Source of the DNA: Escherichia phage vB_EcoM_WFC
Sequence record: NC_048195.1
Length of the DNA: 64,000 nucleotides
Strand: one strand, 5' to 3'
Part shown: positions 11,556 to 59,724 of the stretch, piece by piece
Layout of the letters: the number at the start of each line of letters is the position of its first letter
How positions within the stretch are numbered: the stretch's first letter is position 1
Translations under genes and position numbers: made by a program
The notes under the pieces: generated by a model
Database searches by the model: none
Seen by the model: the letters and a program-made list of their open reading frames with translations, nothing else
Told to the model about the DNA's origin: nothing

Positions 11556-11584
11556 TTGCTTACAAACACATGAATATTTATAAT
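11556..11584 (+). promoter_or_regulatory. sigma70-like promoter TTGCTT-N17-TATAAT upstream of portal
   Basis: -35 at 11556-11561, -10 at 11579-11584; AGGTGG RBS and ATG 11623 downstream. Confidence 0.4.
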
Positions 11585-15927: not shown

Positions 15928-15968
15928 ATTCATCGGCAAAGGATTGCCGCGAGTTTTATACGTATAAT

Positions 15969-16234
15969 GACGTATCATACGTATCAAGTAAGTTATTGTT
16001 TTCAAAAGAATCTTACGGATGATACGGATGATACGCGTTGCCGCCGTACTATATAGGAATTCAAATAAATTAATTTAAAATTATATATCTAATTTAATTT
16101 TATTTTTTTATAAACTCTTATATATGAAAAGTATCCGTATCATCCGTATCATCCGTAGCACACCAGTGATAGCGCGGCTTATACACCGATACGGATAAAA
16201 ATACGCCTCATTTTATCCGTATCATCCGTATCAC
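15969..16234. repeat. Inverted iteron cluster flanking about 100-bp AT-rich core (candidate origin/operator)
   Basis: TACGGATGATACGGATGATACG at 16014-16035; reverse complement at 16136-16157 and 16213-16233; variant at 15969-15985. Confidence 0.6.
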
Positions 16235-16342
16235 ACTAATAAAGGCGCGGCTATATCGGTTGTTATACATATTCAAACCATAATTATTGTTTGCCTAAGT
16301 TTTTTTCATTAGATATAATACACAATACTTATTTGAGGGTGG

Positions 16343-19535: not shown

Positions 19536-19560
19536 TTGCTGTGATTACACAGTAAAACAC

Positions 19561-19590
19561 ATGGGGCGTGGTCGAAAGGCTTCGCCCCAT
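19561..19590 (+). terminator. Stem-loop after capsid gene (attenuator/terminator candidate)
   Basis: 8-bp stem ATGGGGCG/CGCCCCAT; no clear T-tract. Confidence 0.35.
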
Positions 19591-19650
19591 ATCAATAGAC
19601 CTCAAGGGCTGTAGGGGCTTATCTGAGGCTTATATAAATAGGACTACAAA

Positions 19651-23589: not shown

Positions 23590-23636
23590 ATAATTGCCGC
23601 CGTAAATGGCGGCCATCTCTCTGAGAGGAATCTGTA

Positions 23637-26085: not shown

Positions 26086-26645
26086 TGGACTTCGTTTCGA
26101 TTCTGCTTTCTGGTCAATCTTTGGCCATAACGAATGAGTCAACAGGTCTTCCTGTCTGGACAAGGCTTTCACCTGTTTCTGCAGAAATAACATCCCCAGC
26201 AGAAACAACTCAATTCCCTCTTGCTGGTACAGCCATGCAGGTTGTCGAAGTATCAAGCACGTCATCAGTAAGCAATTTACAGGCGGCAAAGGTTGTAATG
26301 CCAGCCCATATGGCGTTAAACGTAATTTGCAATGACCAGTCTACAATTGAAAATATCATAAATTCATTTGATGATGACGAAGTCACATTTTCAATAACTT
26401 CTCGAAGCATCATTGCCAGTAAAATGTCGATGTCCGACGTTGAAATAACCCAGTCAGAAGAAAACTTGAATGGAGTCTCAATAGTAATAACTTTCGAGCA
26501 AACGTCATTTAGCATTCAAGGAAGCTTCGACCCTAAACAATCTGCAGACGAATCATCAAATGGTGTTGCCATTAAAGAACCAGTCAGTTTGACTACAACT
26601 GTGAGTTCGTTATATAATAAAATAAAATCAACAGTAGGAATATAA
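26085..26645 (+). CDS. Hypothetical tail protein
   Basis: ORF in tail module. Confidence 0.4.
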   Translation: MDFVSILLSGQSLAITNESTGLPVWTRLSPVSAEITSPAETTQFPLAGTAMQVVEVSSTSSVSNLQAAKVVMPAHMALNVICNDQSTIENIINSFDDDEVTFSITSRSIIASKMSMSDVEITQSEENLNGVSIVITFEQTSFSIQGSFDPKQSADESSNGVAIKEPVSLTTTVSSLYNKIKSTVGI

Positions 26646-26646
26646 A

Positions 26647-27063
26647 ATGAAGATCACCAACAAACAAACTGGTCGTACAGTAGAAATTAAAATCAGCAAA
26701 ATGACTGCGATGGAAGGCTGGAATATTCAGCGTCGATTCGTAGAATTTGCAATGTCGAAAGACCCTGCTTTTCGTTCAGAGTATACGATGGAAGTGTTGA
26801 GCTTTGCAAAAGTCGAGCTTGACGTGGGACAAGAAATCCCATTAAGCACTGGTGCACTAATTGACAACCATCTTGGTGACTGGGAAAACCTTAAAGAAGT
26901 ATTTGAAGCAGTTCTCATGGAGAACGGTATAAACCCAGACACCCACGCCGAGCGTGAAGGCTACTGGGAACAAGCTGGCGGCGAAATGGCTGCAGCATTC
27001 ATCGGCGAATCGATGCGATTAATCGCGCCATTCCTCAGCGGCGAGACTCCAAACAAGGGGTAA
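26647..27063 (+). CDS. Tail assembly chaperone (putative)
   Basis: 138 aa immediately upstream of tape measure gene. Confidence 0.4.
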   Translation: MKITNKQTGRTVEIKISKMTAMEGWNIQRRFVEFAMSKDPAFRSEYTMEVLSFAKVELDVGQEIPLSTGALIDNHLGDWENLKEVFEAVLMENGINPDTHAEREGYWEQAGGEMAAAFIGESMRLIAPFLSGETPNKG

Positions 27064-27066
27064 ACT

Positions 27067-29247
27067 GTGTCTGACTCATTAGAAAAATTTGTGCTTCAAT
27101 ATACGGTGGACTTGAAAGAGTCCATCAATCGTCTTGAGCAATTGCAAGATAAGGTTGATCAGACAAACAAAAAGGCAAAATCCGCTGGCAAAGATTTCTC
27201 TGGAGCATTCAAAGATGTTTTTGGCGAGCTAAAGCCGCTTACTGGTGAGCTAGGGTCAATTGACGGAATACTTGCGCGACTGACATATCGTTTTGCCGCG
27301 CTCGTTCCTGTTGTCGCAGGATTGGCCGTCGTCGTCAAATCCATCGTTGATGTTCGAAAAGAATACGAAGCGCAAAGAAAGCTTGGTTTTGAAGCCGGAC
27401 TCTCTCCAATGGGTGTCGAGCAACTACAACGACAGTTGAATGAAAGTTCAGGCGGCATCCTTGGCGCACAGGGGTCGCGAGATTTAATCAGCAAAGCTTC
27501 TAATCTGGCATTCAATGCATACACCAACCCCGATGTGATGAACAAGGACAACTTGTTGTTGAACAAGATGGGGACAAGTCCTTTCAACAGTAACGGCGGC
27601 ATCAAAGACACGAATCAGCTGCTTGATGAAATTGGAACAAAGCTGAGAAGTGTTAATGAGCAAACCGCTCGTGCCATTGGTGCTCTGGCAGGTTTTACCG
27701 CCGATGAAGTCCGCGCCCTTCGCGAGCGCAACCAGTCTGTGAAAGAAAGCACACGCATAAGCGATGAGGAAACGGCAAAGCTGCAGCGCCAACAAGCTGC
27801 TCTTGAGACTATACGAAATAGTATGGGGCAAATTCAAGAAGATTGGCGACGTATTGAATTGGTCATCGGTGAAAACGTTATGCCTGCATTCTCGACGCTT
27901 GTCAGCAAAACCGCCGATACAGTCGAAGGATTCCAGATGATGTTCCAAAGAATGTCTGACGGATGGAGCGAATTTGTCGACAATTTCATTGCTGACTTGA
28001 AACACCCGTTTGATAAACAGGCGGCTGTTAACGAGCGTCACGAGCGTGCCGTTGATAGATGGATCACGCAGATGGCCGAAGGCGATGTGAAACGCCAGAG
28101 GAACCAGGAGCAAAACGCAGCTGAACAACGTTCTGCGCAAGCACTTTTCACTCGCGATATAAACCTGTTTTCAAGCGCCGTTTCAACATTTGCTGGCGTC
28201 ATTGATGAGCGACAAGCATGGGCTGCATGGGCTGGTGAAATAGGACGAAGCGCAGGTCAATCTGCCATGCCTGGAACACCAGCACTAAGTACTGGCGCGA
28301 CCGTAGGCAACAACTTGGGATCAGGCAATCCGACCGCTTACGACTCAATATATGAGGAAGCATCCAAGCGTTATGGAATCCCTGTTGCGATGATGAAGGC
28401 CGTAACAGAAGTCGAATCTGGATTCAACCCCAATGCCGTAAGCGGAGCAGGTGCGACCGGACTGATGCAAATCATGCCTTCCAACTTCAAGGGTCTTGGT
28501 ATCACAGACGGCAACGACCCTAGACAAAACATTATGGGCGGTGCTCAACTGTTGAAAGAGTATTTAAACGCTGCCAACGGCGATTGGAATCTTGCGCTGA
28601 CGATGTATCACGGCGGCTACGACCGCAGCGGCTGGGGCAAGAATACACGCGCTTATCCTGGAAAGGTCATGGCCGCTCTCGACCGACAATCCAATGGTGA
28701 GTATGCCACGGCAGCGCCGCAAGGTGCACCAGTTGCTCCAGTACTTAGCGGTAGCGGAGCGGAAGCACCAAAGGGCAGCTATGCACCAGTACAAGGCCAA
28801 TCGCGCCAAACGGTGCAATACAGGCAATTGCAAGAAGCCATTGCAGGATACCTGAACGTACCAGTTGAGCAGTTGATGCAGGGACAAGTAAACAAAGGTG
28901 ATATTGACTTTGCTCAAACTTACCTTAAGCTTGGAACGCAAAGGGATTATATTAAAAATATGCAGCTGGCTTCAACTCCAGGTGTAAGACCGAACATTCA
29001 AGCCGAAGCGATGAAAAACGCTCGTCTTGCTGCATTCCAACTTGAAGCATTCCAGAAATATGGCGGCGACCTTTCCGCGAATAGTCGACCTGGTGGGCGT
29101 GATATTACTATGGGTCAGAAAAACGTTGTCATCAACGTCAACGGCGCTCAAGACCCACGCAGCACGGCGTTCGAAACGAAACGGGTGCTTGAACAAGATG
29201 ATATCAACGACATAAACAACCTTACTGCTACACCTTTGAAGTGGTGA
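27067..29247 (+). CDS. Tail tape measure protein with lytic transglycosylase (SLT) domain
   Basis: 726 aa; coiled-coil N-terminus; SLT motifs TEVESGFNPNAVS...GLMQIMPSNF...MYHGG. Confidence 0.75.
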   Translation: MSDSLEKFVLQYTVDLKESINRLEQLQDKVDQTNKKAKSAGKDFSGAFKDVFGELKPLTGELGSIDGILARLTYRFAALVPVVAGLAVVVKSIVDVRKEYEAQRKLGFEAGLSPMGVEQLQRQLNESSGGILGAQGSRDLISKASNLAFNAYTNPDVMNKDNLLLNKMGTSPFNSNGGIKDTNQLLDEIGTKLRSVNEQTARAIGALAGFTADEVRALRERNQSVKESTRISDEETAKLQRQQAALETIRNSMGQIQEDWRRIELVIGENVMPAFSTLVSKTADTVEGFQMMFQRMSDGWSEFVDNFIADLKHPFDKQAAVNERHERAVDRWITQMAEGDVKRQRNQEQNAAEQRSAQALFTRDINLFSSAVSTFAGVIDERQAWAAWAGEIGRSAGQSAMPGTPALSTGATVGNNLGSGNPTAYDSIYEEASKRYGIPVAMMKAVTEVESGFNPNAVSGAGATGLMQIMPSNFKGLGITDGNDPRQNIMGGAQLLKEYLNAANGDWNLALTMYHGGYDRSGWGKNTRAYPGKVMAALDRQSNGEYATAAPQGAPVAPVLSGSGAEAPKGSYAPVQGQSRQTVQYRQLQEAIAGYLNVPVEQLMQGQVNKGDIDFAQTYLKLGTQRDYIKNMQLASTPGVRPNIQAEAMKNARLAAFQLEAFQKYGGDLSANSRPGGRDITMGQKNVVINVNGAQDPRSTAFETKRVLEQDDINDINNLTATPLKW

Positions 29248-30126: not shown

Positions 30127-30648
30127 ATGAGAAAGAATAAAGTAATTGAGTTGTTTGGAGTTACTTATGAAATACATCAATTCAGCGCAATAGATGCGTT
30201 TGAAATGGTTGATGCGATAAGCATATTAACTCCACTTGAATTATTAAGTGAATGTCATGTTATTAAATATGACGGAACTAAAGTCAGGCTGAATTCTGAG
30301 AAGGCCATCAGTGAAGAAGTGAAAAGTGTGCCAAATCACTTGCCGCCCAACCTTGTATTGAAAGTTCTAATGGAAGCGGTAAAGAAGCACAATTTTGGAT
30401 TCCTCAGTGATTGGAAAGGCACTAAGATTCCAAATAGATTCTTGGCTGACGTTCCGACCGTGGAGCCTAATTATCTTGAGCCGATGGTTGCAAGCCTAAT
30501 AAACAATGGTCTTGCTTCGTTAAAAGAATTGGAAGAATATTATTCATTGCGTGATGCATTCGCCATGTTTGATGGACTAATAGCAAAATCACTTAATGAA
30601 GCCTACTCAAACGAAGCTGCCATTAAAGAATCAAAGTCAAATCGCTAA
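30127..30648 (+). CDS. Hypothetical baseplate protein
   Basis: 173 aa ORF. Confidence 0.45.
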   Translation: MRKNKVIELFGVTYEIHQFSAIDAFEMVDAISILTPLELLSECHVIKYDGTKVRLNSEKAISEEVKSVPNHLPPNLVLKVLMEAVKKHNFGFLSDWKGTKIPNRFLADVPTVEPNYLEPMVASLINNGLASLKELEEYYSLRDAFAMFDGLIAKSLNEAYSNEAAIKESKSNR

Positions 30649-30660
30649 AATATTGCTTAT

Positions 30661-30705
30661 AGACTCCTTATAGATTATAATTTGTTGATCAGATATAAGG
30701 AGTCT
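30661..30705 (+). promoter_or_regulatory. Perfect 12-bp inverted repeat sequestering the RBS of the spike gene
   Basis: AGACTCCTTATA (30661-30672) and TATAAGGAGTCT (30694-30705) with 21-nt loop; AAGGAG RBS is inside the 3' arm. Confidence 0.5.
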
Positions 30706-31434
30706 ATGATGGCAGAAAAGTTAACCCAACTTACAAGCCCCAACCAAACTGACAAATCAAGTATGTTTGCCGCGCTGCAGGGAATGCTGGACCGTGGCAA
30801 GTATACCACTGACGGCATGATTCCTGCACAAGTAATATCTTATGACCGCAAACAGAATTTAGCAGTCATAAAGCCTGTTATTCATTTCGTAAGTCTTGAT
30901 GATAGACCAGTGGAGCGTCAACCACTGGTGTCAATTCCTGTATTGGCAATCGGCGGCGGCGGCTTCGTAATCAACTTTCCTCTGAAAGAGGGTGATTTGG
31001 GCTGGATATTCGCTGGCGACCGCGAGTTGTCGACATTCCTTGAAGAATTGAAGCCGACCGCGCCTACCAATGGCCGCGCGAAAACTTTCGCTGATGGACT
31101 GTTCATACCGGATGTATTTAGAAAATACACCATAAGCGGAGAGGATGCAGGCTCAATGGTAATCCAGTCACTCAGCGGCGCTGTCCGCATTGCATTAAGT
31201 GATGACTCGATAAACATAACTGCATCGGCTGGAGTAAATGTGAAAACACCAATAACCACTATCGACCAACAATTGATAGTTAATGGAAAGGCAACGTTCA
31301 ATGGTGGTATAGAAGGGAAAGAAGGAACGACGGCAACGCTTCCGACTGGCACAACAATCGGCGGCACAAATGTATCCACTCACGGTCACATAGGTAACGG
31401 ACCTGGAAACAGAACTGGGGATATGATAGAATGA
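30706..31434 (+). CDS. Baseplate central spike protein (gpV-like, putative)
   Basis: Gly-rich core; C-terminal STHGHIGNGPG His motif reminiscent of spike apex. Confidence 0.5.
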   Translation: MMAEKLTQLTSPNQTDKSSMFAALQGMLDRGKYTTDGMIPAQVISYDRKQNLAVIKPVIHFVSLDDRPVERQPLVSIPVLAIGGGGFVINFPLKEGDLGWIFAGDRELSTFLEELKPTAPTNGRAKTFADGLFIPDVFRKYTISGEDAGSMVIQSLSGAVRIALSDDSINITASAGVNVKTPITTIDQQLIVNGKATFNGGIEGKEGTTATLPTGTTIGGTNVSTHGHIGNGPGNRTGDMIE

Positions 31435-37895: not shown

Positions 37896-37926
37896 AAAAA
37901 GGCCCATATGGGCCTTTGTTTATTTT
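37896..37926. terminator. Bidirectional rho-independent terminator between convergent genes
   Basis: GGCCCA-TA-TGGGCC hairpin flanked by A-tract and T-tract. Confidence 0.6.
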
Positions 37927-48910: not shown

Positions 48911-49594
48911 TTATTTACCAAATGGAATATCAGTGCCAGACATAAAGCGCCATGCGCCCGTAATTAAGATATGGCGAATGAAGTCAGCAATTACTTGCGG
49001 CTCAGTCTCCAATCCATTCATCAATGCCTTTTTCTGGTATTCAGCGGCGTATTCAGGAGTCCAGCCGCGAGTCGCGCAAACGGCATCTTCAATCTGTTTA
49101 GACATGCCAGTGCCGCGCAACTTGTTAGGACTAATAGAGAATACCGTGATGCCGTACTTAGGCGTAAGTTCGTGAGCCATCTGCTTGCTGATCATAAGCG
49201 CAGCAGCCTTGGATGCATTATAACATAAGCTGGACGTCATAGGAATATGCGCAGCGTTGGAAACGATGTTGATCACAAAGCCTTTGTTGTCGATAAGACT
49301 TTTCAGCGCAGCCTGAGTCGTGTTAACGAAAGAGAATGCGTTGGTGTGCATAACGCGGTTAAACTCTTCATAGTTTACATCTTCAAACCAATTGTTAGAG
49401 TTGACACCAGCACAGTTGATCAAGCCTTCAACATCATATGGGCTTAAAATTTCTTTCATCTGTTTAGCATCGCGGACGTCATATCCGTATGCTGAATCGA
49501 TGCCAAGCACGTTATGACCGTAAGCGCCAAGGGTGTCAAAAATAGATTTACCAAGACCGGAATTGGAACCTGTTACAACAATTACTTTTTTCAT
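48911..49594 (-). CDS. Short-chain dehydrogenase/reductase (SDR) family oxidoreductase
   Basis: 227 aa; N-terminal TGSNSGLG (TGxxxGxG) and catalytic YNASK (YxxxK). Confidence 0.75.
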   Translation of the reverse strand: MKKVIVVTGSNSGLGKSIFDTLGAYGHNVLGIDSAYGYDVRDAKQMKEILSPYDVEGLINCAGVNSNNWFEDVNYEEFNRVMHTNAFSFVNTTQAALKSLIDNKGFVINIVSNAAHIPMTSSLCYNASKAAALMISKQMAHELTPKYGITVFSISPNKLRGTGMSKQIEDAVCATRGWTPEYAAEYQKKALMNGLETEPQVIADFIRHILITGAWRFMSGTDIPFGK

Positions 49595-49660
49595 TTATTT
49601 ATCCTTTTTTGGACTTCGTTTCGATGAGGTAAATATAACTCATCGAAACGCACAAGTAAA

Positions 49661-51349: not shown

Positions 51350-51796
51350 TTAACGGTAGTTAACTAGTTGCTGATCACCAGAGAAGGTGCAATGATAAAC
51401 GAATTGTGCGTTATAAAGCAACTGAAAACTTTTCTTTGGTTCATTATTAGAACTCATTGATGTAAAGATTTCTGCACCAGAACGGTTTTCACCAATAAGG
51501 TTGATAAAGCCGCCAGTTGAACGAGGTTGGACGAAAGTGAAACGTTGCATCCACGGAGTGCGGTTGGCACCTTTCCCTGTGAATCCCTGAATCTGAATAT
51601 TCAGACCTTCTTGCTCGTTCACACCGATGTAAGTGGTAATTGTTGCGCCAGTCGTCGCTGCAGTCTTGCCGTCCATCGCTTCGCAATCGTAAACAGCGAT
51701 TGAATCGGAAGTACGGACAGCGGCTTCAGTCGCTTCCATATACATGGTTCCGAGAATAGCAGTTGCGGCAAGCGCGATTCCAGTGATGCGTTTCAT
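51350..51796 (-). CDS. Small secreted protein with signal peptide (function unknown)
   Basis: 148 aa; MKRITGIALAATAILG... signal-like N-terminus; two Cys. Confidence 0.5.
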   Translation of the reverse strand: MKRITGIALAATAILGTMYMEATEAAVRTSDSIAVYDCEAMDGKTAATTGATITTYIGVNEQEGLNIQIQGFTGKGANRTPWMQRFTFVQPRSTGGFINLIGENRSGAEIFTSMSSNNEPKKSFQLLYNAQFVYHCTFSGDQQLVNYR

Positions 51797-51861
51797 TTTC
51801 GTTTCCTCTATGAGTTCTGCTTCAATGATTAAAGTATACGCCCATTGAAGCAGAAAGCAAA

Positions 51862-58053: not shown

Positions 58054-59724
58054 ATGTCAATTAATAATGACAATCTTCCAGAGGATACAGGTGATGAATT
58101 TGGTGCAATCTTTGACGAAATTCAAGATGCAGGCGTTTCGGAAGAAATGCAGGCAGCAGAGCAGCAAGGCACCAGAGCTAAAATCAGCCTTCAACATAAA
58201 GCTGTTGAAAAAGATTCAGAGCGCATGGAATGCTACGGTGAAGAAGACTTGGTTGAAAGAGCACGCTTGCTCGCCTCACTTCAGGTAATCAAGTTCCCTC
58301 ACTACAAGCCTACCAAAGATGACTTCGTTCTACAGGCAGACCGGACGAGTGACATGAACCGTTATGCGGTTTTCGACGCGTTGTTTGATAAGGGAAGTGG
58401 CGTTGTTCCATTCCCTCACAAAGATACTTTTCGTGGGCGCTTAGTCGACCATCGCGGCGAAACATTCACTGACCGTACCTTGGAAGTCACAGAGATAGTT
58501 GCCGCTGTCGACGCAGCAGGGTTGTCCAACCCAAACTCACGTCAGGTCGCTCAATCCTATAAGGAATGGGCCATGCGTTATCAGCGCGACGACCTGATGG
58601 ACTTCTTCTACAAGAAGCTGCCTGAATGGGACGGTACTGCGCGCATCGAGAAATACCTTATCGAGCTATTCCGACCGTTCGATACAGAGTTAAACCGACA
58701 AATCGGTGTGTATTTTTGGCTATCGCTCTACAACCGCCTGACCAACCCTGGCTGTCAAGCGCCAATCTCCATCGCGCTCATCGGCGGCCAGAACGCAGGG
58801 AAGAGTTATTTTAGCAAGCTGCTTTGCGAAGCTATTATGAACGACCGCCACGCAACACCGATTCCGTTGAACTTAGCCGCGCAAAACTTCAACCCGTTCT
58901 TGCGAGCTATCACGGGTCGCTCGATTATCGCGAACGTCGGCGAGATGACAGGCTTTAAAAAGGCCGACATCGAAAACATGAAAGCATTCCTGACTAAGAC
59001 GGAAGATGACCTGGACTTCAAATTTGAAGATACGCAGGTTAAACCACGCCAGTGGATTGCTATCATGGACGGCAACGAATACGCAGGCATGCAGCGTGAT
59101 GACACGGGCAACCGTCGTGTGTATCCTATCTTTGTTGGCCAACTCGCTGACAAGGACGGGCAACCGAACTGGTCGAAAGACTTCCAAGCTGACCTTTCCA
59201 CTTTGAAAGAAGACGTTTGGCAGCTTATGGCTGAGTGCGCTGCGTGGATGGAGAAGCACGGCGAAGCAGGCTATAACGCGTTTGTTGGTGAAACATCTCG
59301 CATGCTTACTGAGTTCAGTAAAAACGAAATGGAACGCGCTCGCGGCGTTATCCGTGATGAGATGGTTGATAACGACCTTGTTGAAGTCGTCATCACCGCG
59401 CCTTATGACCGACATCACAGCGGACGCTGGCACATCACCAGTGGTGCTATTGCTATGGGATTCAGAGCGAAGTGCGGCAAGTCGCCTTTCTCTCGTACCC
59501 TTGCGCCACACATGTCGAAGCTTGGTTTTGAGCCTGCGACCTATCGCAACCAGCGCGGTTACTTTACGCCGCTGATTAAGAATGAAGCAGGGGAATACAT
59601 TTCTGATTTGATGACCATCTTAGCGTATCTTATCCGCGATGAGTCTGACCCTGAAGATATTGAATTCTTGAAGAAGGTTATTGAGCGTAAACGTTCTTTG
59701 GGAAGAGATAAGGATGAATTCTGA
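58054..59724 (+). CDS. Primase-associated P-loop NTPase/helicase (VirE/D5-like)
   Basis: 556 aa; Walker A GGQNAGKS; VirE-like region. Confidence 0.55.
   Translation: MSINNDNLPEDTGDEFGAIFDEIQDAGVSEEMQAAEQQGTRAKISLQHKAVEKDSERMECYGEEDLVERARLLASLQVIKFPHYKPTKDDFVLQADRTSDMNRYAVFDALFDKGSGVVPFPHKDTFRGRLVDHRGETFTDRTLEVTEIVAAVDAAGLSNPNSRQVAQSYKEWAMRYQRDDLMDFFYKKLPEWDGTARIEKYLIELFRPFDTELNRQIGVYFWLSLYNRLTNPGCQAPISIALIGGQNAGKSYFSKLLCEAIMNDRHATPIPLNLAAQNFNPFLRAITGRSIIANVGEMTGFKKADIENMKAFLTKTEDDLDFKFEDTQVKPRQWIAIMDGNEYAGMQRDDTGNRRVYPIFVGQLADKDGQPNWSKDFQADLSTLKEDVWQLMAECAAWMEKHGEAGYNAFVGETSRMLTEFSKNEMERARGVIRDEMVDNDLVEVVITAPYDRHHSGRWHITSGAIAMGFRAKCGKSPFSRTLAPHMSKLGFEPATYRNQRGYFTPLIKNEAGEYISDLMTILAYLIRDESDPEDIEFLKKVIERKRSLGRDKDEF

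Follow-up and report, generated by a model that had tools for sequence, protein, structure and literature searches.

The window (the whole 64-kb stretch of phage WFC DNA that was analyzed) is by its sequence that of a Wifcevirus, an E. coli myophage. In particular, the 2 kb at the spike locus are 99.9% identical to Escherichia phage ManiWeber_Bas99 and 90–99% identical to 26 further Wifcevirus records. The gene order there runs from a tail lysin/tape-measure-like gene through the baseplate hub gene (Pfam E217_GP41), a gene for a 173-aa protein and the gene for the central spike to a Baseplate_J wedge gene (coordinates are given in Table 1). The spike protein has the PDB relatives 4ru3, 9b45 and 8eon_F ("Baseplate spike gp43"; E ~1e-54), matches Pfam family PF18352 and is a trimer in the solved structures, and most of the related records annotate its start at 30709. 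The 60-nt gap 5′ of the spike gene is among the very few gaps in a tightly packed structural module on the plus strand, and it is this gap that concerns us here.

The 173-aa gene upstream of the gap is annotated as hypothetical in all relatives examined, and its product has no Pfam domain and no PDB relative. Homologs of this gene precede the gap in phages Kyle, MTx, E217, 14-1 and Carpasina and in the IMG/VR lineages, and the gene is a marker of the phage clade that carries the spike gap. Across the family the protein is conserved, and its LE-YYS--DAF motif is invariant. Its neighbors, the hub and the spike, are present in the E217 virion models, and the 173-aa protein itself is without a relative of solved structure; it may be a non-virion assembly factor.

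Table 1 Features of the spike locus and related sites (window coordinates), with gap lengths in relatives
Feature	Position	Strand	Basis or remark
173-aa gene, 5′ neighbor of spike gene	30127..30648	+	ORF list; stop TAA 30646–30648
Baseplate central spike (puncturing protein), 241 aa	30709..31434	+	PDB and Pfam; alternative ATG 30706
−35 element TTGCTT	30653..30658	+	TTGCYT-N17-TATAAT motif
−10 element TATAAT, in hairpin loop	30676..30681	+	Sequence; recurs in gaps of relatives
Predicted transcription start, 7–8 nt past −10	30688..30689	+	Inferred from mapped start site of phage 14-1
5′ arm (anti-SD, has CUCCUUA)	30659..30672	+	Fills promoter spacer, upstream of expected start site
3′ arm	30694..30707	+	Holds SD AAGGAG (30697–30702) and first ATG (30706)
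Full RNA hairpin expected on read-through RNA	30657..30709	+	16 outer pairs (one G-U), 3-nt bulge, 5 inner pairs
Strong promoter-like site TTGACT-18-TATAAT	26589..26618	+	11/12 match; best sigma70 match of structural region
Site 2, TTGCTT-16-TATACT	51815–51855	−	−10 in loop; 3′ arm ends 18 nt before ATG
Site 3, TTTACT-17-TATATT	49617–49650	−	−10 in loop; 3′ arm ends 25 nt before ATG
Spike gap, Pantoea phage Kyle			Length 63 nt
Spike gap, Serratia phage MTx			Length 67 nt
Spike gap, Pseudomonas phages E217 and 14-1			Length 55 nt
Spike gap, Xanthomonas phage Carpasina			Length 53 nt

The initial annotation of this DNA had described a perfect 12-bp inverted repeat with a 21-nt loop in front of the spike gene. 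The repeat lies where it was placed, and is in fact slightly longer: its perfect arms, ATAGACTCCTTATA and TATAAGGAGTCTAT, are 14 nt each and enclose a 21-nt loop. Among perfect inverted repeats in the window whose loop is at most 40 nt it ranks as the longest, and because just two of 200 dinucleotide shuffles of the window reach at least 14 bp (about p 0.01) it is beyond chance on its own, and much more so given its conservation (below). The arm sequence has no second copy in the window, and the 10 matches found at 3 mismatches, against 3.2 expected, are a marginal excess.

As RNA, the helix gains the pairs U30658-G30708 and U30657-A30709 beyond the perfect arms, and an inner 5-bp helix joins 30673–30677 to 30686–30690. 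The ribosome-binding sequence AAGGAG had been said to lie inside the 3′ arm just before the start codon, and so it does, in the middle of the arm, and the helix has both possible ATGs (30706 and 30709) at its base; of the 18 nt surrounding the spike translation start, 16 are paired in the predicted fold. A folding-energy calculation, which the same annotation had put forward as a check, bears out the stability of the hairpin: 30640–30730 folds with an MFE of −26.7 kcal/mol, where its dinucleotide shuffles give −11.95 ± 2.63 (z −5.61, 0 of 200 as stable), and the hairpin is kept in both the MFE and the centroid structures of a 361-nt context.

What the initial annotation missed is a sigma70-type promoter, TTGCTT-17-TATAAT, that occupies the loop and the 5′ arm. 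TATAAT agrees with the sigma70 hexamer at 6/6 positions and TTGCTT at 3/6 (with the TTG kept), and the two are separated by a 17-bp spacer, within the 16–18 bp usual for sigma70 promoters; a generic promoter scan with a −35 threshold of 4/6 skipped the site, which scores 3/6. The motif TTGCYT-N17-TATAAT has three exact matches in the 64 kb (11556–11584, 16291–16319 and 30653–30681), all of them on the plus strand in gaps of the structural module, and eight matches in the window at no more than one mismatch, where 0.89 are expected. The translation starts at the other two exact sites are not occluded (z −0.08 and −0.39). At the spike gene, the predicted start near 30688 would fall between the two arms of the repeat, and the pairing partners in the 5′ arm lie at −31 to −16 relative to it. 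The several promoters of this kind also suggest a structural "late" cluster under the control of several host-type promoters, the situation reported for phage 14-1.

In phage 14-1 (Pbunavirus) the orthologous promoter has been mapped. According to the article and its bioRxiv supplement, ONT-cappable-seq places promoter P018, of the sigma70 class, at start site 28318 (Putzeys et al. 2024, PMC10914365), the supplement lists a transcription unit, TU018, that spans gp42 (spike) and gp43, and the article describes P018 as active in msfGFP reporter assays in E. coli as well as in P. aeruginosa. The article also indicates that long transcripts were not captured in the long-read data (PMC10914365), and no termination site near the orthologous site is reported in the supplement. 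The 14-1 record has the end of gp41 at 28281 and the start of the spike gene gp42 at 28337, so the P018 start lies in the orthologous gap, 8 nt past a TATACT, with the spike ATG 19 nt further on, and the 14-1 5′ arm, GGGAAGGCU, lies upstream of this mapped start. The two loci are alike in the gap itself (between the homolog of the 173-aa gene and the spike gene), in promoter class, in transcripts (predicted in WFC) that cover the spike and wedge genes, and in a predicted helix, GGGAAGGCU / GGCUUUCCC in 14-1, that joins promoter-spacer sequence to the SD region. They differ in the −10 element, which is TATACT in 14-1, and in the 14-1 stem, which is GC-rich, 9–10 bp long and has two G-U pairs. 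The text of the article that was searched treats the promoter only, with no mention there of a hairpin or of its relation to the start site (PMC10914365).

A transcript can include the 5′ arm only if it begins farther upstream than the start site, and spike mRNA is therefore expected in two forms. Opening the SD and AUG is calculated to cost 23.2 kcal/mol on read-through RNA and 4.75 kcal/mol on RNA from the predicted start site; with shuffled upstream segments the cost is 7.3 ± 2.3 kcal/mol (z 7.1, 0 of 100 as high). RNA that begins at the predicted start has no significant structure around the SD (z +0.99). Thus the proposal of a translational-control hairpin made in the initial annotation would hold for read-through RNA, on which a stable helix is predicted to bury the SD and AUG, and would fail for RNA started at the promoter; since the latter is without the 5′ arm, the hairpin should not damp translation of every spike mRNA alike.

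Going by its promoter-like sequence, the site at 26589–26618 is likely to supply the read-through RNA that arrives at the spike gap. Its position corresponds to that of the mapped 14-1 promoter P017, upstream of gp38, and a scan found no terminator-like site on the plus strand between 25134 and 31670; read-through is plausible because of this strong promoter-like site and the lack of a terminator-like site before the gap. The site itself lies inside coding DNA, ~29 nt before the gene at 26647.

We propose the following arrangement. The gap would hold an internal sigma70-type promoter that overlaps the hairpin and gives, from ~20 nt 5′ of the spike ATG, a transcript of the spike gene and the downstream baseplate-wedge genes. 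The anti-SD arm (CUCCUUA) would be written in the promoter spacer, where sequence is free, and the 3′ arm would consist of the SD and start codon. Read-through RNA, with both arms, would have its SD and AUG locked in the hairpin (about −26 kcal/mol), and the spike would be poorly translated from it; RNA from the internal promoter, with the 3′ arm only, would be open and translatable. Spike synthesis would in this way be tied to the firing of its own promoter and not to upstream transcription. That read-through RNA is translationally closed for the spike and promoter-initiated RNA open, as at T4 gene e, is the reading we favor with moderate confidence; for WFC we infer the start site, the presence of read-through RNA, the effect on translation and the biological purpose alike. 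From the known footprint of the ribosome, one that terminates at the UAA of the 173-aa gene should reach no farther than the few lowest base pairs of the helix. It is not obvious why a protein of which a virion needs three copies should have a strong, accessible SD on promoter-started RNA, and with a 5′ UTR of ~20 nt the overlap of helix and SD could come partly from crowding.

Comparison with relatives extends these observations beyond the genus. For the comparison we drew on GenBank phages and IMG/VR contigs, which gave 25 distinct gap sequences. In 17 of these 25 lineages the gap has a perfect TATAAT, against 0.81 expected from shuffles; it lies 21–32 nt before the start codon in 16 of these 17 and 6 nt before it in lineage L054, and its usual partner, at a distance of 17 nt upstream, is TTTACT or TTGCNT. 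As a measure of how far the translation start is occluded, we calculated for each lineage the free energy needed to unpair −15 to +3 of the spike start, on RNAs that begin at the upstream stop codon and on RNAs that begin at the predicted start site; for the RNA from the upstream stop the control was a set of 100 versions in which the segment 5′ of the start site had been shuffled. In 13 of the 25 lineages, occlusion by the natural upstream segment exceeds that by at least 97% of its shuffles, a count to be read in the light of mononucleotide shuffles, lineages that are not all independent and start sites that are predicted.

The arms are unrelated in sequence between lineages, for example ACCTCTTACAGT/ACTGTAAGAGGT in Kyle and TCTCTCCCGGTG/CACCGGGAGAGA in L022, with further unrelated pairs in L059 (CTCCATGAC/GTCATGGAG), L066 (GCACCCGCT/AGCGGGTGC) and L054 (below). 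The partner strand always lies between the −35 element and the start site, in a register that differs by lineage, and in most helix-bearing lineages 10–16 nt of the 18-nt start region are paired. Conservation in relatives, another check that the initial annotation had named, is found in part. Helices of differing sequence occlude the start significantly in 13 of 25 lineages; about 10 of the 25 retain the promoter but show no significant occlusion, and in L044 the whole gap is gone, so that the hairpin is not a feature of every lineage. A comparison of sense and antisense folds as a test of RNA against DNA gave a marginal preference for the sense strand (17 vs 7 lineages, p 0.056).

Lineage L054 (IMG/VR contig 3300048898_000066, 1710–1750) has an arrangement of its own. 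RNA started from its TATAAT, which is 6 nt from the spike ATG, would be leaderless, and on read-through RNA a 9-bp helix (GCCATCCGT/ACGGATGGC) lies over the start codon.

Within the genus the locus hardly varies. Among 14 Wifcevirus genomes 14.4% of columns are variable over 2 kb, and 30580–30800 is the least variable part, with 0–4 variable columns per 60 nt against a maximum of 20 elsewhere and an implied mean of ~9. The longest invariant run, 30604–30686, spans the −35 element, the 5′ arm and the −10 element, and the 161 nt around the repeat are invariant in the 14 genomes except for a loop change in AV128 and a stem change in Eco4M-7 (A30695C, next to the loop, the sole stem variant and uncompensated). 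This speaks for strong constraint, and there is no covariation signal among the 14 genomes because the region is invariant. In the Pbunavirus genomes likewise the stems and the −10 element are invariant, with variation just in the loop and upstream. A MAFFT alignment of the window with Kyle anchors on the promoter and leaves the arms 2 nt out of register, and we therefore claim no column-wise compensatory changes between the two; our claim is that each forms a perfect helix and that the SD/anti-SD pair differs (AAGGAG/CTCCTT in the window vs AAGAGG/CCTCTT in Kyle).

The spike hairpin has company in the genome. The window has four perfect inverted repeats of at least 12 bp, where 0.17 are expected, and two of the other three share the layout of the spike repeat, with a −35 element, the 5′ arm in the spacer, the −10 element in the loop and the 3′ arm in the leader (sites 2 and 3, Table 1). 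Site 2 is a 13-bp perfect repeat (TTCTGCTTCAATG) with a 15-nt loop in the gap before gene 51350–51796; its SD, GAGGAA, is free, and the element is invariant in four Wifcevirus genomes. Site 3 is a 12-bp perfect repeat (CGTTTCGATGAG) in the gap before a FabG-like reductase gene (48911–49594), with an RNA fold z of −4.7, and its sole stem variant among relatives is a C to T change in Bas99 that turns a G-C pair into G-U on the sense RNA. Both lie in 65-nt gaps between co-directional genes, both have the SD outside the helix, and both are invariant in the genus except for that one G-C to G-U change. A hairpin around a promoter is thus a repeated design here that need not always act on translation, and because sites 2 and 3 leave the SD free the hairpin may have a more general role at the RNA level.

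Several other noncoding features of the window may be noted. The 415-nt gap at 15928–16342, before the head-protease gene, contains eight 9-nt repeats of the CGTATCATC type, which occur in both orientations, as well as a 22-bp perfect inverted repeat that flanks a 100-nt AT-rich core, and a 13-bp repeat at 16188–16223; it looks iteron-like and might be an origin of replication or an array of regulator-binding sites. The Bas99 gap at 58746–58945 has similar GATACGGAT repeats. GC-rich hairpins at 19536–19650 and 23590–23636 follow the major head gene and the sheath gene and may be attenuators or stabilizers. A probable bidirectional terminator (AAAAAGGCCCATATGGGCCTTT) lies at 37896–37920 between the convergent endolysin gene and minus strand genes.

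The main rival to transcript-dependent translation of the spike is a role in RNA processing or stability. The hairpin would then be mainly an intercistronic element on read-through RNA (a 3′ exonuclease barrier, an element that stabilizes the upstream unit, or a processing site of the RNase III type) that is packed on the next promoter, with occlusion of the SD as a by-product. It draws on sites 2 and 3, where the same layout occurs with the SD free of the helix, on terminator hairpins that abut or overlap −35 elements elsewhere in the genome, and on the size of the spike helix: RNase III substrates are about two turns of double-stranded RNA, the spike helix is about the same size, and its 16 + 5 bp with a bulge are compatible with the length of such a substrate. 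Placement of the helix argues the other way, as the spike SD sits at the center of the arm with the AUG at its base, most helix-bearing lineages pair 10–16 of 18 nt around the start, and sites 2 and 3 manage to place the arm clear of the SD in a gap just 5 nt longer; a terminator form of the idea also lacks a U-tract after the stem. We regard an intercistronic role of this sort as less likely than gating, though as a rival to be taken seriously. The locked translation start predicted for read-through RNA holds under both the gating and the processing/stability readings. If, on the other hand, the loop TATAAT were not a working promoter, the hairpin would be present on all spike mRNA and might serve to set a low copy number, in keeping with a stable helix that buries the SD and AUG and with a low-copy virion part that is a trimer in the solved structures. 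Recurrence of the promoter motif at three gaps of the structural module, conservation of the −10 element far above chance over 25 lineages and the mapped start with reporter activity in E. coli at the orthologous 14-1 site make such a constant damper very unlikely; moreover, 23 kcal/mol would be expected nearly to abolish translation, not to tune it.

Two further readings give the RNA helix no part. A dimeric regulator might bind both arms as DNA and control the promoter between them, and the perfect Watson-Crick palindromic arms that bracket the −10 element, in the same layout at three promoters, are what such an operator might look like. Yet the three repeats have no common half-site sequence, the half-sites at the spike gene are 35 bp apart center to center, and in the relatives arm sequence, arm length (8–16 bp), loop (10–27 nt) and arm position relative to the −35 and −10 elements all vary while pairing of the start persists. 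The G-U pairs (two each in the window, Kyle, MTx and E217) would be mismatches in DNA, and the one stem change at site 3, C to T in Bas99, gives a G-U pair on the sense RNA. The G-U pairs, the varying geometry with pairing kept and the absence of a common half-site favor action at the RNA level over the DNA level, and we hold an operator to be still less likely than a constant damper. The smallest probability goes to a chance repeat without a function of its own, carried along in a conserved promoter region. Two of 200 window shuffles do reach 14 bp, and since all of 30580–30800 is conserved, the arms are not singled out by their conservation; such a repeat would, however, have to be squared with significant occlusion in 13 of 25 lineages independently and with unrelated sequences, and with four perfect repeats of at least 12 bp (0.17 expected), three of which share one layout.

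To return to the favored reading, in which read-through RNA is closed and promoter-started RNA open for the spike, it would mean that spike synthesis is uncoupled from the upstream tail genes in Wifcevirus, Pbunavirus and their relatives, a widespread group of candidates for phage therapy, and that edits in the spacer would alter spike translation from read-through RNA with the promoter hexamers untouched. It would also account for the short transcription units of the 14-1 structural cluster, would extend a device of T4 late promoters to ordinary sigma70 promoters, and would make the 53–67-nt gaps regulatory and not spare DNA. More speculatively, hairpins with the −10 element in the loop might be a family-wide device for control that depends on transcript origin and needs no phage sigma factors, in which a family without its own RNA polymerase writes one strand of a helix into the spacers of host-type promoters at several loci, of which the WFC genome shows three. 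The outcome of such a device would be translational at the spike and would concern RNA fate at the two minus strand sites; we think so wide a role doubtful at present. In the literature searched we found no report of Wifcevirus promoters, nor of a relation between hairpin and promoter; the orthologous promoter of 14-1 had already been published.

Several known classes of element resemble the spike hairpin in some respect. An Rfam 15 scan of 30300–31100 returned two chance-level snoRNA matches (E 5–8, far below gathering scores). RNA thermometers (ROSE, fourU) and riboswitch platforms likewise occlude the SD by intramolecular pairing. The SD helix of a thermometer is weak, contains mismatches and melts at 30–42 °C; a perfect 14-bp core at −26.7 kcal/mol (37 °C) should be too stable to melt physiologically, and a loop of just 21 nt holds no aptamer, by which reasoning we set both classes aside. 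A cruciform promoter was rejected on the grounds that the −35/−10 geometry would be lost, and an intrinsic terminator because the stem is AT-rich and is followed by AUGAUGGCAG with no U-tract, the terminator scan making no call there. The class of palindromic operators fits poorly, given the lack of half-sites common to the three repeats, the varying spacing and register in relatives, and the G-U pairs.

RNase III processing hairpins, such as the intergenic R sites of T7 and the λ N leader, are closer, as they too include ~20-bp intergenic hairpins on polycistronic phage RNA, and the λ N leader structure also covers a ribosome-binding site, like the spike hairpin. The spike helix differs from T7 R sites in being a perfect 16-bp duplex plus 5 bp without the typical internal loop, and the promoter-in-loop layout is not a known feature of the T7 and λ sites.

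The closest parallel is with T4. On the longer early transcripts of T4 genes e, soc, 49 and I-TevI the SD or AUG is sequestered, and late promoters that lie in the DNA of the 5′ strand yield transcripts that are without this strand and are translated; at gene e the structure cuts lysozyme synthesis ~100-fold (PMC3014915). The spike locus is like these genes in the predicted locking of its SD and AUG on upstream-initiated RNA and in a putative promoter embedded in the DNA of the 5′ strand or loop, and in both cases related phages keep the layout while the sequence changes. By prediction, the spike SD and start lie in a helix on the longer RNA, and both the promoter motif and the mapping of P018 in 14-1 put the start site downstream of the 5′ strand. 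The two systems differ in promoter type, which is host sigma70 at the spike and the gp55-dependent late TATAAATA type in T4, and in the WFC anti-SD arm, which sits in the −35/−10 spacer. The gated gene in WFC is a baseplate spike gene within a co-directional structural cluster, where an early-vs-late logic is not evident, and the gating in WFC is predicted from sequence. What is new here is best read as a T4 gene e-type arrangement in a different phage family, built around a host-type promoter.
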